This document shows positions 17,622-47,760 of a stretch of 55,390 nt of DNA, piece after piece. Position numbers and translations under genes: made by a program. Source of the DNA: a candidate division WWE3 bacterium (GTDB lineage: Bacteria; Bdellovibrionota; UBA1018; UBA923); contig JBBRLF010000001.1 in assembly GCA_038231515.1 (NCBI GenBank), positions 1-55,390 on the forward strand. The letters run 5' to 3'. The notes beneath the pieces are model-generated. The model saw nothing but the letters and a program-made list of their open reading frames with translations. It did not search any database and was not told the origin of the DNA. Positions within the stretch are counted from its first letter, which is position 1, and each line of letters opens with the position of its first letter.

Positions 17622-18179
17622 CTACTCGTCCTCGCGCACACACCGATACTCGCGATCGGCATTAGCACCCTTGCCAACGTAGCCTTCTTCTTGAAGAACA
17701 CGCAAAGCCAACGCCTTGCCATCTTCGCCAAGCTTCTCAACACGAATAACCATTCGACGCAGCGTCGAAACAGCATAGGGGTTCTCGCGAGCAATACTGA
17801 AGTAAATAGTCTCGAACTCGCCAGCTTTGGAGCAATACGTGCGGGTCAGCACATCGAAGGCGCCTTGAGCTTCGACAACTTCGGCCCGCGGCACGCCGTC
17901 GGGCTTATAGGTTGTCGTATTCAGGTATACGAGCTTGAGCGGACGATCATGTCCCATGAATATATAGTGGCCGTTTTTGAGCGTAATAGTGTGCGCGATG
18001 TACTGATCGACCTCGAACTTAAGGCGGTCGAAACGGCCGTCGTCGACGCCGCCCGCCTCACATCTGTAAAAGCCGTCAAGCGCCGCGCAGTGCTCGATCC
18101 TGCCAAAATTAATATCGGCGCGCGCAGCAAAACCAAAGAGGCTCAATCCCAGGGCCAGCACATAAACTTTATTTTTCAT
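17622..18179 (-). CDS. Hypothetical exported protein
   Basis: Signal peptide MKNKVYVLALGLSLFGFAARA. 185 aa. No family recognised. Confidence 0.6.
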   Translation of the reverse strand: MKNKVYVLALGLSLFGFAARADINFGRIEHCAALDGFYRCEAGGVDDGRFDRLKFEVDQYIAHTITLKNGHYIFMGHDRPLKLVYLNTTTYKPDGVPRAEVVEAQGAFDVLTRTYCSKAGEFETIYFSIARENPYAVSTLRRMVIRVEKLGEDGKALALRVLQEEGYVGKGANADREYRCVREDE

Positions 18180-24539: not shown

Positions 24540-25139
24540 TTAATGCGCTTTCTGGGAACCGACTTCTTTGTGGAATTCTTCAATGCCCTTCGCCCTCACG
24601 CCTCGACCCTTGTAATGGGAATAGAGAATACAATTCTGCTGTCTGAGCGAATAGCGCGCTGCCGTCTTCTTCAAGTTACCTTGCGTGAACTCGACGGGCA
24701 CGTCGGCCCGCATGGGCTGCAAGGAATCCGAATCGCCAATCTTGATCAAATTGCAGTCTTTGATTCCTGTTTCGACGAAGATAAAGGTGGCACCCACGGT
24801 GGACAGCTTTTGAAAAGTACCGGGTACCGGCATCTGCACCTCTGTACCGACCGGAAAAACCCCTGCCTTCGGAGTCGTCATCGTGCACTCCTTGCCGCGA
24901 GTCGTAGGATTGTAGTCAGGGCAATCCACCGAGTACGTATAGCAGGTCAGGGCCGAGGTGGCGCGATAGCTGATTTTGGGAATGACCTTGGCCATCTGGC
25001 CATAATTGGGCAGGGTCTCGTAGTGATTGGCCTCGTCGGAATCCGCCGTCTCGCAAACCGCGGGCACTTTCGCCTGCGCCAGGCCCGGCGCCAGCAGCGC
25101 GCAAATGATCATCGTTGAAAACGACAGAAGTTTGGTCAT
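24540..25139 (-). CDS. Hypothetical exported Cys-containing protein
   Basis: Signal peptide MTKLLSFSTMIICALLAPGLAQA. RBS is GGGGGGA. No family recognised. Confidence 0.6.
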   Translation of the reverse strand: MTKLLSFSTMIICALLAPGLAQAKVPAVCETADSDEANHYETLPNYGQMAKVIPKISYRATSALTCYTYSVDCPDYNPTTRGKECTMTTPKAGVFPVGTEVQMPVPGTFQKLSTVGATFIFVETGIKDCNLIKIGDSDSLQPMRADVPVEFTQGNLKKTAARYSLRQQNCILYSHYKGRGVRAKGIEEFHKEVGSQKAH

Positions 25140-25166
25140 GGAATCCCCCCGGAATTTGATGCTTGA

Positions 25167-25175
25167 ATTATATCA
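25167..25175 (-). promoter_or_regulatory. Extended -10 sigma70 promoter candidate (TGaTATAAT) for the 24540-25139 gene
   Basis: The minus strand reads gTGaTATAATtcaagc, a perfect TATAAT with an upstream TG, about 28 nt upstream of the ATG. Confidence 0.45.
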
Positions 25176-25318
25176 CGCTACGAACCTGGTTTTACAGAAA
25201 CCAGAAAAGCCGGGTATTTCCACGACTTCTAGCCTTTCGAACCGTCGGCAAAGCATTGCACATCGGCAGGGTCGAGCGCCTGAAACTTAAGAGCGCCCAG
25301 GTTGAGATACAGCAGAAT

Positions 25319-25864
25319 TTATCGAATGCCGCGCCGAAGTCGCGAACGTACCAGCCAACCCAGCTCCAGGCTGCCCAACCCACCCAGGAGCGAGCCCGCC
25401 ACCCAGGCTACGCCCAGCGTGACCATCATCTCGCCACCCAGGCAGGCAAAAACACCGCTCGATAAGGTGGCCATCACGCCCAGCTGCAAAAGTCTTGAAC
25501 GCCGAATGACCCGAATCTCACCTGGTCTGAGAATCAGACTGCCTAGCAGGCTGCTGGCGCCCAGAAATACCGAGCCGCAGCCCAGCATGCAGGCGGTTTC
25601 GCCATAGCGCATGAAAAGCGTCATTAAACCCATGCCAGGAAAAATGGAAATTCCAAACTGCGGGCACATCGCAAGCACCAACGCGCCAACCAGCAGCTGA
25701 ATAAGCCCAAGCTTGGCAAATACCCACGAAGCCTCGGGGTTAAGATCATGGTGAACGGCGTCGAAGACCTTCGCCGAAACGTGCAATGGTGGAACGCGCT
25801 CTTCGACAGACGCGAAGCATTCAAAATCCCGGGCCCAGTCCTGGACGCTTTGTTTCTTGCTCAT
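25319..25864 (-). CDS. Putative multipass membrane anti-sigma factor (NrsF-like architecture)
   Basis: 4-nt overlap with the ECF sigma gene upstream. A ~45-aa cytoplasmic N-terminus is followed by 4-5 TM helices carrying Cys residues (LAMCPQFG, ETACMLGCGS, FACLGG). The assignment rests on context, not on sequence identity. Confidence 0.5.
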   Translation of the reverse strand: MSKKQSVQDWARDFECFASVEERVPPLHVSAKVFDAVHHDLNPEASWVFAKLGLIQLLVGALVLAMCPQFGISIFPGMGLMTLFMRYGETACMLGCGSVFLGASSLLGSLILRPGEIRVIRRSRLLQLGVMATLSSGVFACLGGEMMVTLGVAWVAGSLLGGLGSLELGWLVRSRLRRGIR

Positions 25865-26385
25865 AATACGGCCCTCAACTTCTTTACGGCACGGCTCACG
25901 AGCTGCCGCGCATTCATGGGTGAGGTCTCAAGCTTTTTGGCGATTTCTTCAAACGAAAGATCCTGCCCGTAACGCAGCTCGATGGCCTTGCGCTGCGCTG
26001 GCTGAAGTCCGGCCAGGCTGGGCATTTCACTCGACTGCTCAGGTTCGTGTTCGGGGGCTACGGCGCCGTCCACGGCCTCGGTATCTAGCTTCTCACGAAT
26101 ACGCCCGGCTTTACGCAGGTGATCAACCATCACGCCGCGCGTGACCGTGAAGAGCCAGGGAATAAACGGAAAGGTCGTATCGTAGCTCAAGCGACTTTTA
26201 TGCAGCTTCATGAAGGTGGCTTGAAAAACGTCATCCGCCATTGCCTTGTCCCTCAGGCTGTTCACCAGAAAGCCATAAACCCGGCTCGAGTGCCGCGCGT
26301 ACAGCTGGGCAAAAGCCGGCTCGTCGTCTTGCTGGTAAAGAGCCATCAGCTCCTCGTCAGATAAGTTATCCATTGACCCATCCAC
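25861..26385 (-). CDS. ECF-type RNA polymerase sigma-70 family factor
   Basis: Region 2 (FAQLYARHSSRVYGFLVNSLRDKAMADDVFQATFMKLHK...PWLFTVTRGVMVDHLRK) and region 4 (LQPAQRKAIELRYGQDLSFEEIAKKLETSPMNARQLVSRAVKKLR). The start is either the GTG at 26385 or the ATG at 26373. Confidence 0.9.
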   Translation of the reverse strand: MDGSMDNLSDEELMALYQQDDEPAFAQLYARHSSRVYGFLVNSLRDKAMADDVFQATFMKLHKSRLSYDTTFPFIPWLFTVTRGVMVDHLRKAGRIREKLDTEAVDGAVAPEHEPEQSSEMPSLAGLQPAQRKAIELRYGQDLSFEEIAKKLETSPMNARQLVSRAVKKLRAVL

Positions 26386-26390
26386 TAGTG

Positions 26391-26419
26391 GTTACGCTCA
26401 ACCCTTAGCATTTGTGACA
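26391..26419 (-). promoter_or_regulatory. ECF-type promoter candidate for the sigma/anti-sigma operon (TGTCACAAA-N14-CGTAAC)
   Basis: The minus strand reads TGTCACAAA tgctaagggttgag CGTAAC, ending about 6 nt before the GTG at 26385. It mirrors the plus-strand motif at 26438-26466. Confidence 0.45.
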
Positions 26420-26437
26420 GAGCCCGTGCGAAGCTTT

Positions 26438-26466
26438 TGTCACAAAGTAGCAGGTAACAGCGTATC
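26438..26466 (+). promoter_or_regulatory. ECF-type promoter candidate for the Cys-rich peptide gene (TGTCACAAA-N14-CGTATC)
   Basis: The plus strand reads TGTCACAAA gtagcaggtaacag CGTATC. A leader of about 17 nt with RBS GGGAGG follows before the ATG at 26490. Confidence 0.45.
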
Positions 26467-26489
26467 CTTATAAAAGGGAGGATCTATCC

Positions 26490-26693
26490 ATGCGTTTTCC
26501 ATTGATTCTAGCGGCGATGGTGGCTCTGGCGAGCCCGATTGCCATGGCCGGTAGCCCTGCCAAGTGCACCTGCACCAAGAAGTGTCAGATCGAGTGTAAA
26601 GCTGGCCACCCCAAGTCTTGCAAGTGCAAGCACTGCGATTGCGCCAAGGGCGGCAAGTGCGATTCCGGCTGCAGCAACGAAGATAAAGCTTAA
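26490..26693 (+). CDS. Small exported Cys/Lys-rich metallothionein-like peptide (67-aa precursor, ~47-aa mature)
   Basis: Strong RBS (GGGAGG). Sec signal MRFPLILAAMVALASPIAMA|G. The mature part is GSPAKCTCTKKCQIECKAGHPKSCKCKHCDCAKGGKCDSGCSNEDKA, with 10 Cys in CxC, CxxxC and CxxCxC spacing. A terminator lies downstream. Confidence 0.7.
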   Translation: MRFPLILAAMVALASPIAMAGSPAKCTCTKKCQIECKAGHPKSCKCKHCDCAKGGKCDSGCSNEDKA

Positions 26694-26753
26694 GCTCCGT
26701 CAGCAACTCCGACAGAAAAGTAATTCACTTTTTTCGAGACTCTGAATTTGAAG

Positions 26754-26795
26754 CGCGGCTCTGGGACACCTCTCAGAGCCGCGTTTTTGCTTTTG
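26754..26795 (+). terminator. Rho-independent terminator after the Cys-rich peptide gene
   Basis: CGCGGCTCTG (26754-63) / CAGAGCCGCG (26774-83), followed by TTTTTGCTTTT. Confidence 0.75.
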
Positions 26796-26856
26796 TTACA
26801 CAAAAAGGCTCCTTTCTTCAGTGTCATTATAGCCGCGCTATGTCATAGACGTATTC

Positions 26857-27498
26857 ATGAATTTAACCGCAATCGTCCTGTCCACGTTCCTGAGCTTGAG
26901 TTCCGCCCACGCCGGCACTGTTCAATACGTCATCCAAAAAGACAGTTTGGCTCCGGACAGAAACGGCAAGTGCGAAAGTCCCGACGTTTGCGGCATTCGC
27001 TTTGACGTTGGATTCTCGCTGGGCCGGCATCAGGGATTTGCCAGCGCCGCAACCGCCGACGCTTCGGCTAAAATTCAGAGCGAGCCCTTTGAAGTAAGCG
27101 CCGCCGAATTCAGCGTACCACTCGCGGCCATGGATACTTGGAATGGGCTGCGCAACAAGCACATGCGCAATGCCTTTGAAGCCGACAAGTTTCCGAACAT
27201 CACTTTCAAATTCAGCTCGGCCGCAGCCACCACCGAACCTCTCTCGGAAACCCCTCTCGCAGTTGAACTCAAGGGCCTCTGGCAGATGCACGGTGTAACC
27301 AGAGAAATCGTGTTGCCCGTCAAACTTGAAAAAGTGCGCGGAACCGACGTCGTTCATGTGCAGGGCGATTTTTTCCTGAGTCTCAAAGATTATAACGTCA
27401 AGGTGCCATCGTTTCTGGGCCTCAAAGTGGAAGACCGAGTCAGCGTTCATCTGAACTTCAACTTGAAGCCGGGTACTCCGAGACTGGCGAATGAATAA
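26857..27498 (+). CDS. YceI-like periplasmic (polyisoprenoid-binding family) protein
   Basis: Signal peptide present. YceI-like pattern NAFEADKFPNITFKFS...LKGLWQMHGVTREIVLPVKLE...VQGDFFLSLKDYNVKVP. Confidence 0.75.
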   Translation: MNLTAIVLSTFLSLSSAHAGTVQYVIQKDSLAPDRNGKCESPDVCGIRFDVGFSLGRHQGFASAATADASAKIQSEPFEVSAAEFSVPLAAMDTWNGLRNKHMRNAFEADKFPNITFKFSSAAATTEPLSETPLAVELKGLWQMHGVTREIVLPVKLEKVRGTDVVHVQGDFFLSLKDYNVKVPSFLGLKVEDRVSVHLNFNLKPGTPRLANE

Positions 27499-28153
27499 GT
27501 TCATCGGCATCTTTTGTTTCATGTCGCTGGTGAGCGGCTGCGCCTTTCGCCACGATAAAAACTCAGACGCCGCCAGTACCCAGACCAGCGGGGTCGATGC
27601 CAGTACGGGGCTACTCGACAACACCTCGGGCTTCAGTCACATCCAGAAAAAGATTCTCAACAATCGCTGCCTGAGCTGCCATGGCGGCAGACAGCAACCT
27701 TACCTGGGTACCTACGCGGCGGTGAAGTCCAACGCCGATGCGATTCGCAACGCGGTTTTTGTCAAAAAAAGCATGCCTAAAAGCTCAAGTCTCAGTCGAG
27801 CCGAGGGCAGACTTCTGCGCATGTGGCTCGACGCTGGCGCTCCCGAGCAGGCGCCGGTCGAGGAACCCATTCCAGATCCTGTGCCCAACTTGCCCGGACA
27901 TCCGGTGCGTTGGAGCGTGCTGGCCGAGCGAGTACTTATTCCCAAATGTCTCGCCTGCCATACGGGTGAAAATCCCAAGGGAAAAGTCGACCTGAGTTCC
28001 CTCCAAAGTGTTCGTCCCTTGTCGGGCGCGCTGCTTTTTACGACGCTCAGTACGATCGACAACGAGATGGTGATGCCGCCGCTGCCCGCCGAACTTACGA
28101 CTGACGAAAAAGAACTCGTCAGCAACTGGGTCATCGACGGAATGCACGACTAG
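27491..28153 (+). CDS. Dihaem c-type cytochrome-like lipoprotein
   Basis: Lipobox LVSGC. Two CxxCH motifs (CLSCH, CLACH), each in a repeated ~90-aa module. 8-nt overlap with the YceI-like gene. Confidence 0.7.
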   Translation: MNKFIGIFCFMSLVSGCAFRHDKNSDAASTQTSGVDASTGLLDNTSGFSHIQKKILNNRCLSCHGGRQQPYLGTYAAVKSNADAIRNAVFVKKSMPKSSSLSRAEGRLLRMWLDAGAPEQAPVEEPIPDPVPNLPGHPVRWSVLAERVLIPKCLACHTGENPKGKVDLSSLQSVRPLSGALLFTTLSTIDNEMVMPPLPAELTTDEKELVSNWVIDGMHD

Positions 28154-46725: not shown

Positions 46726-47760
46726 CTATTTGATCAAACCGCGGGCAATAGCGGCTTCGGCGATCTGAACTGCGTTGAGCGCCGCGCCCTTTCTGAGATT
46801 GTCGCCCACGACCCAAAAAGTAAGCCCGTGCTGGCCTTCGCCCAGGGACGGATCCTTGCGAATACGCCCCACGTAAACGTCATCTTTACCCGAAACGTCC
46901 AGCGCCAGCGGATAGGTATTCGTCGCCGGATCATCGAAAACCTTAACCCCTGCCATCGCTCCAAGCGCTGCCCGGGCCTGTTCTGGCGTAACCGGTTTTT
47001 CGGTTTCGATCGTCACCGACTCGGAGTGGCAATTCAGAACCGGCACGCGCACACAGGTGGCGACCACGCGAATCGACGAGTCGCCCAGAATCTTGCGGGT
47101 TTCCTCCATCACTTTATGTTCTTCGCCGGTAAACCCGTCATCGCGAAAAGTATCGATGTGCGGCAGACAGTTAAAGGCGATTGGATGAGGAAAGGCCTCG
47201 ACCGTAAGCTTCTTGCCATCGACGTGCTCGCGAATCTGGCGCTTGAACTCGTCGATGCCTTTTTGCCCTTTGCCGGATACCGCCTGGTAGCTGGCCAGAA
47301 TTACGCGTTTGACGCGAAAGCGGTCATGCAATGGCTTGAGCGCCATAACCAGCTGGGCCGTGGTGCAGTTGGGGTTGGCCACAACGCGAGTTTCGCGTGC
47401 GCCATCAAGTGCCGCTCCGTTCACTTCGGGCACGACCAGCGGTACGTCGGCACGCATGCGAAAGATACTGGCGTTGTCGATAACCATGGCCCCGGCCGCG
47501 GCGGCGCGAAAGGCATGCTGCTCGCTGACACTGCTGCCCGAGGTGAAAAAAACAATATCCAGACCCGCGAAAGACTCATTGTCACCCAGCGCTTCGAGCG
47601 CCGTCTTGTGCTGACCGACTGTAACCTTCTGGCCCGCGCTGCGCTGGGACGAAAACAGGCGCAGCGACGAGAACGGAAACGAGCGCTGCGCAAGCGTGGC
47701 CAGAACTTCGCGGCCCACGGCACCACTGGCTCCGACGACGGCGACGCTGAACTTTTTCAT
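46726..47760 (-). CDS. asd: Aspartate-semialdehyde dehydrogenase
   Basis: VGASGAVG N-terminus, active-site region NPNCTT, 344 aa. Confidence 0.95.
   Translation of the reverse strand: MKKFSVAVVGASGAVGREVLATLAQRSFPFSSLRLFSSQRSAGQKVTVGQHKTALEALGDNESFAGLDIVFFTSGSSVSEQHAFRAAAAGAMVIDNASIFRMRADVPLVVPEVNGAALDGARETRVVANPNCTTAQLVMALKPLHDRFRVKRVILASYQAVSGKGQKGIDEFKRQIREHVDGKKLTVEAFPHPIAFNCLPHIDTFRDDGFTGEEHKVMEETRKILGDSSIRVVATCVRVPVLNCHSESVTIETEKPVTPEQARAALGAMAGVKVFDDPATNTYPLALDVSGKDDVYVGRIRKDPSLGEGQHGLTFWVVGDNLRKGAALNAVQIAEAAIARGLIK

Follow-up and report, generated by a model that had tools for sequence, protein, structure and literature searches.

The 55,390-nt stretch of contig JBBRLF010000001.1 analysed here (the window) contains a short intergenic region from which genes point outward on both strands. 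On the minus strand lie the genes for a sigma factor of the extracytoplasmic function (ECF) type and for a 181-residue membrane protein, presumed to be its anti-sigma factor, and on the plus strand lies the gene for a small cysteine-rich, metallothionein-like peptide, an arrangement that agrees with the preliminary description of the region. Between these genes stand TTTGTGACA and TGTCACAAA, exact reverse complements of one another, which make up the two arms of a perfect 9-bp inverted repeat and are 18 nt apart. Read outward, each arm is followed by a CGTA element that starts 14 nt after the 9-mer, which is 16 nt after the heptamer TGTCACA (Table 1). The coordinates, the repeat, the spacer and the two distances to CGTAAC and CGTATC had all been given in the preliminary description, and each proved exact on direct reading and by script. 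The identity common to both sites extends further, to TGTCACAAA-N12-AGCGTA. We consider it likely, with a probability of roughly 0.85 and judging from the sequence and its conservation, that the two sites are divergent promoters of the adjacent ECF sigma factor, one of them autoregulatory and the other serving the Cys-rich peptide gene.

Table 1. Features of the divergent locus in the window, followed by the kinds of gene that the motif faces in related loci (ORF, open reading frame; OMF, outer-membrane factor; MFP, membrane fusion protein; RND, resistance-nodulation-division)
Feature	Position or locus	Strand	Basis or remark
181-residue membrane protein gene, presumed anti-sigma factor	25319..25864	minus	ORF; ATGA shared by its start codon and the sigma stop codon
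ECF sigma factor gene (sigma2 + sigma4)	25861..26385	minus	Pfam Sigma70_r2, Sigma70_r4, r4_2; NCBIfam
Putative -10 element of the sigma promoter, CGTAAC	26396-26391	minus	direct reading and script
Putative -35 element of the sigma/anti-sigma promoter, TGTCACAAA	26411..26419	minus	direct reading and script
Left arm of the repeat, TTTGTGACA	26411-26419	plus-strand reading	direct reading and script
Putative -35 element of the peptide promoter, TGTCACAAA	26438..26446	plus	direct reading and script
Putative -10 element of the peptide promoter, CGTATC	26461..26466	plus	direct reading
Shine-Dalgarno sequence of the peptide gene, GGGAGG	26476..26481	plus	direct reading; 8 nt before ATG 26490
Cys-rich (metallothionein-like) peptide gene, 67 residues, predicted secreted	26490..26693	plus	ORF
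Intrinsic terminator, 17-bp stem then T run	26750..26787	plus	closes the single-gene peptide unit
Cys-rich peptide homologues, divergent	window, L001, L004, L007		tblastn
Cys-rich peptide homologues, downstream of the anti-sigma gene	L028, L038		tblastn
Cys-rich peptide homologue, far side	L014		tblastn
Cys-rich peptide homologue, upstream on the same strand	L045		tblastn
OMF-MFP-RND operon in the gene order of Cus, headed by a TolC-type outer-membrane factor	8 loci		
RND pump faced directly	L006		CusA/CzcA heavy-metal model 835.9 bits, cut-off 701
Multicopper oxidase with Met/His-rich insert	L028, L038		closest to the copper_res_A model
Exported protein of ~210 residues, motif HPVAYQG...MTWNQ	L029, L034, L040, L043		motif-preceded neighbour
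DUF3347 protein; a small number of further exported proteins	single loci		

The inverted repeat alone is not statistically remarkable: 12 perfect 9-bp inverted repeats with spacers of up to 30 nt occur in the window, against a mean of 9.1 in first-order Markov simulations. The composite motif is far rarer. The pattern TGTCACAA-N15-CGTA has exactly two copies in the 55 kb, both in this intergenic region and within 50 bp of one another, where 0.005 would be expected per window. Even with one mismatch allowed, TGTCACA-N16-CGTA matches only these two sites in the window (0.35 expected from shuffles), and the heptamer TGTCACA itself has no other copy on either strand, where base composition predicts 5.5. 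A relaxed scan of the window (N15-17, CGT[ACT], one mismatch) returned only two further weak matches, both on the plus strand and both with an imperfect -35 element, TGTCCCA-N15-CGTT at 17950-17975 and TGTCACC-N15-CGTC at 47580-47605; these are probably due to chance. A scan of the intergenic region for sigma-70-like promoters found none, and a search of positions 25000-28000 against Rfam gave no family above threshold.

Conservation of the motif and the genes it faces

The motif can be followed through the loci that encode homologues of the membrane protein. With the membrane-protein alignment, 45 such loci were fetched, 27 from species-representative genomes and 18 from metagenomes; the membrane proteins of these loci and of the homologues found earlier share 26-74% identity with the window protein. 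The closest relatives of the locus are metagenome-assembled genomes (MAGs) and two isolates of Bdellovibrionota; the isolates Bdellovibrionota bacterium FG-1 and FG-2 carry the locus (L005, L009, L016). When 8-mers were counted without bias over the 150 nt that precede the conserved sigma N-terminus, TGTCACAA came first, being present in 31 of 35 loci, and it recurs elsewhere in the flanks, counting both strands, in only 10. The motif is correctly oriented and lies at a fixed short distance from the start of the sigma gene in 31 of the 35 orthologous loci. The preliminary description had named absence of the motif upstream of orthologous sigma genes as an observation that would refute divergent ECF-like promoters with an autoregulatory minus-strand copy, and the proposal is instead strengthened by this conservation.

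The form of the motif is conserved as well as its place. The N16 spacing to CGT[AT] is fixed in 28 orthologous loci, while the spacer itself carries essentially no information. Among these 28 aligned sites, the -10 element is CGTA in 26, and two positions outside the search pattern are also conserved, an A at position 8 (28/28) and a T two nt after CGTA (21/28). The strict pattern TGTCACAA-N15-CGT[AT] has 47 matches in the 278 kb of fetched loci, where Markov simulations give 0.04, an enrichment of more than 1000-fold that comes with positional conservation. All but four of these matches (43/47) fall outside long ORFs, even though 78% of the bases lie within them.

Every motif copy is oriented towards a gene that starts 7-106 nt downstream of it, and the nature of the genes faced in this way suggests what the motif controls. 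One target is the Cys-rich peptide: in all eight distinct loci with a peptide homologue, the motif stands 21-48 nt before the peptide start, wherever the peptide gene lies with respect to the sigma operon and whichever way it is turned. Direct membership of the peptide in the regulon, predicted from the window sequence alone, thus gains support from every locus in which it can be followed. The other targets, listed in Table 1, are Cus-type efflux operons, copper oxidases and exported proteins. Because the targets are of these kinds, the regulon reads as a probable set for periplasmic or envelope detoxification of the copper/silver type.

The window peptide consists of a Sec-type signal peptide followed by a stretch with 10 cysteines, nine of which are invariant across the family (alignment A2, eight homologues). 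Its members, from the window and from L001, L004, L007, L014, L028, L038 and L045, are 55-82 residues long and carry a Sec signal peptide, so that they are metallothionein-like but exported; the cysteines follow roughly the pattern C-x-C-x3-C-x3-C-x7-C-x-C-x2-C-x-C-x5-C-x3-C. Pfam and NCBIfam contain no family that matches the peptide, and a homology search with it in a large protein database returned only two proteins; the further homologues, in eight distinct loci, were found by tblastn against the fetched loci. In L045 (3202-3500) the peptide gene precedes the sigma gene in the same orientation and the sole motif copy stands before the peptide gene, which suggests a peptide-sigma-anti-sigma operon. 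The exported protein of about 210 residues that is faced by the motif in four loci (for example L043:4545-5230) begins with HPVAYQGAxGVMTWNQSF in its N-terminal part and ends with a C-terminal aromatic residue; it matches nothing in Pfam or NCBIfam and may be a small outer-membrane protein.

Probable divergent promoters and the alternative readings

The two sites have what is expected of ECF promoters, namely a bipartite -35/-10 structure, a spacer of about 16 nt, a CGT-type -10 element and conservation upstream of a sigma factor gene, and an autoregulated ECF operon with a divergent target is a textbook architecture. Several observations nevertheless weigh against reading them as promoters of the adjacent sigma factor. 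Two loci with enough upstream sequence, L017 and L021, lack the motif, and two others have variants of it, with a spacer two nt shorter in L009 and a degenerate -35 element in L038. The dependence on this particular sigma factor is deduced from the autoregulatory position of the motif and from co-occurrence, and the anti-sigma role of the membrane protein is presumed from synteny, translational coupling and predicted topology. In the source genome, moreover, the motif scan covers this contig.

It is possible that the sites are genuine ECF promoters but that they are read by another sigma factor encoded elsewhere, for example one of the ECF41 type. Indeed, on the basis of mapped transcription starts, Wecke et al. 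(2012; PMC3426412) described TGTCACA-n16-CGTC as the signature of ECF41 and its -35 element as "specific for group ECF41", and a literature search for this -35 element in connection with ECF factors, anti-sigma factors or copper found ECF41 as the only ECF group. The rest of the genome lies outside the contig, and other sigma factors encoded there would not be visible. However, the motif travels with the sigma/anti-sigma pair, occupying in 31 of 35 loci the place that is classic for autoregulation, immediately before the sigma gene, and its -10 element is predominantly CGTA rather than the CGTC of the ECF41 consensus. Furthermore, the targets are metal-resistance genes and not the carboxymuconolactone decarboxylase, oxidoreductase or epimerase genes that are the sole known targets of ECF41. 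The recognition helix of the family, N-x-R-Q-x-x-S-R, matches ARQLASRA of the ECF41 protein SigJ, which offers a plausible reason why the -35 element should be shared. We therefore regard a distant sigma factor as an improbable reader of these sites.

Still less can be said for the proposal that a dimeric transcription factor, such as a metal-responsive repressor or a CRP/FNR- or Rex-like protein, controls the divergent genes with the inverted repeat as its operator; the preliminary description had named a dimeric repressor as the alternative. Metal-resistance genes are often under the control of dimeric repressors, the arms do form a perfect 9-bp palindrome and two relatives, L001 and L004, have the 18-nt gap too. 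The abutting arms of L006 and L007 even read TGTGA-N6-TCACA, the CRP consensus. Yet a dimer cannot fit the range of gaps that is observed: the arms are separated by 18 nt in three loci (the window and these two relatives), by 1-2 nt in seven and by 76-235 nt in another seven, and in 15 loci a second arm is lacking within 400 nt. The CRP-like abutting spacing is likewise not conserved. Neither the fixed 16-nt distance from arm to CGTA nor the fixed orientation towards a gene is needed by an operator, 9-bp palindromes occur in the window at chance frequency, and no candidate regulator gene is conserved beside the site. Since the gap varies or the second arm is missing altogether, while each arm keeps its own CGTA at a constant distance, the arms are better understood as two promoter units, and an operator is highly improbable. 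The palindrome in the window would then be a by-product, because two identical promoters have been placed back to back. The CRP-like sequences (L006:3405-3425 and L007:3400-3421, -35 elements with a 2-nt gap) could mislead motif scanners.

That the whole motif is a coincidence without function is effectively refuted: the palindrome taken alone lies within chance expectation, but the rarity of the composite motif, seen here twice within 50 bp, and its enrichment and conserved position in related loci do not.

The sigma factor and its presumed anti-sigma partner

If the two sites are divergent promoters of the adjacent sigma factor, the properties of this protein and of its neighbour should be compatible with such a role. 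The sigma protein has 170 residues and ends with sigma4, without a C-terminal extension or a further domain; it matches Pfam Sigma70_r2 at 4e-15 and the NCBIfam model TIGR02937 (sigma70-ECF) with 90.2 bits, against a cut-off of 42.9. It thus has the composition of an ECF (group 4) sigma-70 protein, in which only sigma2 and sigma4 domains and a length of about 170-200 residues are expected. Its 120 best homologues are 160-213 residues long, and none has an extra Pfam domain or a SnoaL-like extension. The sigma sequence of the window contains no cysteine. With respect to other ECF factors the family stands apart: AlgU, SigK, RpoE and SigW are about equally distant from its profile (1e-17 to 1e-14, with AlgU and SigK at 1e-17), CnrH is distant (E 1e-7) and SigJ falls outside 1e-5; the full-length window protein matches SigJ weakly (E 5e-4). 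The main text of the ECF classification of Casas-Pastor et al. (2021) mentions neither Bdellovibrio nor this motif.

The sigma4 recognition helix, N-x-R-Q-x-x-S-R (sigma4 region, window 25864-26061, minus strand), is near invariant in the family and closer to SigJ and to region 4.2 of sigma-70 and FliA than to typical ECF sigma4 helices. Likewise, a query with sigma4 alone against the PDB found SigJ as the best but weak match (E 0.0019); next came RpoD and FliA, not other ECF factors.

Two start codons are available to the sigma gene in the window, GTG at 26385, exactly 7 nt after CGTA, and ATG at 26373. In 10 loci, the window included (window region 26373-26396, minus strand), the CGTA of the sigma promoter is followed at a distance of exactly 7 nt by an in-frame ATG, GTG or TTG, and no other start is possible for the sigma gene in at least L008, L010, L019 and L033; therefore, sigma mRNAs are probably leaderless in part of the family. 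In other loci the sigma leader is 20-25 nt long and holds an AAGGAG Shine-Dalgarno sequence. If transcription begins about 8-9 nt after CGTA, the window sigma mRNA is predicted to start near 26385, at the G of the in-frame GTG. It is possible, then, that this mRNA is leaderless as well, the alternative being the ATG at 26373 with a 12-nt leader. For the peptide, an analogy is provided by the S. meliloti RpoE9 operon, in which transcription starts 9 nt after the ECF41 motif (PMC3616915); by this precedent we infer a start near 26472-26473 and hence a 5' untranslated region of about 17-18 nt that would hold only the Shine-Dalgarno sequence.

Looser matches to the motif are also found inside the sigma coding region of four loci, about 220 nt before the stop codon (L017:3778, L029:889, L034:1042 and L038:719). 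Their spacer is one nt longer, the -10 element being CGTT in L017, L029 and L034 and CGTA in L038, and three of the four loci are closely related to each other. These matches probably reflect chance or inherited sequence, although they might alternatively provide an internal promoter for the anti-sigma gene.

Where a locus extends far enough upstream, the sigma gene nearly always directly precedes the membrane-protein gene, L021 being the clear exception. The AlphaFold2 (AF2) model of the 181-residue protein (mean predicted local distance difference test score, pLDDT, 75.7) has two short N-terminal helices, 7-19 and 27-41, predicted to be cytoplasmic, and four membrane helices, 45-66, 79-111, 124-140 and 146-180. 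In an alignment of 11 homologues (A1), C67 (in CPQF), C92, C96 and a GMGLM motif are invariant and C141 is near-invariant. By alignment and model together, C67 and C141 would lie at the predicted periplasmic ends of membrane helices, and C92-x3-C96 and the methionines of GMGLM...FM would lie in or near the second membrane helix. It is appealing to propose from these residues and from the regulon that the anti-sigma candidate itself contains a sensing site for a thiophilic metal. Neither Pfam (E <= 0.01, DUF1109 included) nor NCBIfam matches the protein, and a Foldseek search of the AF2 model against the PDB found no match (best E 0.8). Presumably, the protein represents a new, unannotated family of candidate anti-sigma factors.

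Comparison with known systems and a possible mechanism

The closest precedent for the promoter is thus the ECF41 group, whose members M. tuberculosis SigJ, B. licheniformis Ecf41, R. sphaeroides RSP_0607 and S. meliloti RpoE9 share the -35 element TGTCACA, the 16-nt spacer and a CGT-type -10 element beside the sigma gene. In other respects the two systems part. The ECF41 -10 element is CGTC, whereas that of the present family is CGTA(T). ECF41 proteins carry a SnoaL-like C-terminal extension of about 100 residues and function without an anti-sigma factor, whereas the sigma factor of the window ends after its 170 residues without an extension and is translationally coupled to a membrane-bound anti-sigma candidate. 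ECF41 factors control only the neighbouring gene for a carboxymuconolactone decarboxylase, oxidoreductase or epimerase, unlike the metal-resistance genes faced by the motif here. By these features, the window sigma factor is not an ECF41 protein. The recognition helix aligns with ARQLASRA of SigJ, and it is plausible that a similar helix explains the shared -35 specificity.

In function, the nearest analogue is the CnrYXH system of Cupriavidus metallidurans, in which a membrane anti-sigma factor with a two-helix cytoplasmic domain of about 45 residues (class II) holds the sigma factor CnrH, which fires two promoters, one that serves its own operon and another that serves an RND heavy-metal efflux operon (PMC6851896). 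The helices 7-19 and 27-41, predicted to precede the first membrane helix of the 181-residue protein at 45-66, fit the CnrY type, in which two such helices wrap sigma2 and sigma4, in length and in number, a likeness that comes without a match in sequence or fold. There are also differences: Cnr has a separate periplasmic sensor, CnrX, for which no counterpart is present here; the Cnr anti-sigma factor has one membrane helix where four are predicted here, with conserved Cys and Met; and Cnr (ECF20) responds to Ni/Co, whereas the regulon here, with its Cus-type pump and CopA-type oxidase, points to Cu/Ag.

Copper-linked ECF systems are also known from Myxococcus xanthus, in CarQ/CarR and CorE. 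CarR, a multi-pass inner-membrane anti-sigma factor that seems to be inactivated directly by copper, resembles the present candidate in its multiple membrane passes and, probably, in the link to copper, as far as a comparison of descriptions goes. Sigma factors of the CorE type (ECF44) have a CxC motif between sigma2 and sigma4 and a Cys-rich C-terminal domain and work without an anti-sigma factor; the window sigma factor has neither the motif nor the domain. In SigF/NrsF (ECF16, DUF1109), an ECF sigma factor is paired with a multi-pass membrane anti-sigma factor whose conserved cysteines have been implicated in metal sensing. NrsF/DUF1109 anti-sigma factors, however, have six membrane helices, whereas the 181-residue protein has four predicted and no match to DUF1109, and the SigF promoter motif differs from the motif described here.

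On the likely reading of two divergent promoters, the circuit would work as follows. Each promoter would consist of the -35 element TGTCACAA(A) and, 16 nt after the heptamer TGTCACA, the -10 element CGTA(T/A). The leftward promoter would drive the sigma gene together with the gene for its membrane anti-sigma factor, to which it is translationally coupled, providing positive autoregulation from an mRNA with either no leader or one of about 12 nt, and the rightward promoter would drive a single-gene unit for the secreted Cys-rich peptide, with a leader of about 17 nt, a strong Shine-Dalgarno sequence and an intrinsic terminator. At rest, the two short N-terminal helices of the four-helix protein would keep the sigma factor at the membrane. 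It would be freed by a signal, most probably Cu(I)/Ag(I) or a thiophilic metal akin to them, for which the Cys/Met cluster conserved at the periplasmic side of the membrane helices would be the sensor, and RNA polymerase with the freed sigma factor would then fire both promoters. In relatives, the same sigma factor would drive CusCBA-type efflux pumps, a CopA-type multicopper oxidase and other exported proteins.

A more far-reaching scenario, to which we give somewhat less than an even chance when all its parts are taken together, is that the locus belongs to an uncharacterised ECF module whose occurrences here are all in Bdellovibrionota and related MAGs and in which the four-helix anti-sigma factor is itself the Cu(I)/Ag(I) sensor through its invariant, membrane-embedded Cys and Met residues. 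The sigma factor would have acquired or retained, by means of a sigma70/SigJ-like R-Q-x-x-S-R helix, a -35 specificity thought to be unique to ECF41, and among the members of the regulon would be a secreted metallothionein-like peptide, representing a kind of periplasmic metal buffer for which we found no description in the literature.

What the analysis adds is the promoter consensus, the probable Cu/Ag regulon, the new anti-sigma candidate family, the secreted metallothionein-like peptide and an ECF41-like -35 element outside ECF41. An anonymous intergenic palindrome would thereby become part of a defined regulatory circuit, and with the consensus TGTCACAA-N15-CGTA(T) one could read out which genes form the regulon of an uncharacterised ECF family in Bdellovibrio-like bacteria. 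The sigma family would be linked to copper/silver detoxification through Cus-type efflux, a CopA-type oxidase and the secreted Cys-rich peptide. If an "ECF41-specific" -35 element is indeed used by an unrelated ECF family under anti-sigma control, this matters for the prediction of ECF promoters and for the choice of orthogonal ECF/promoter pairs in synthetic biology.

Beyond the terminator of the peptide gene, a YceI-like gene is followed on the plus strand by an overlapping gene for a two-domain c-type cytochrome lipoprotein (window 26857-28153). A motif-type promoter was sought by eye upstream of the YceI-like gene (start 26857) and the one candidate, a CGTATT 3 nt before the ATG, was rejected, as it has no -35 element at the right distance. 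The Pfam matches of these genes are YceI for the first, and Cytochrome_CBB3 and PSCyt1 for the second.

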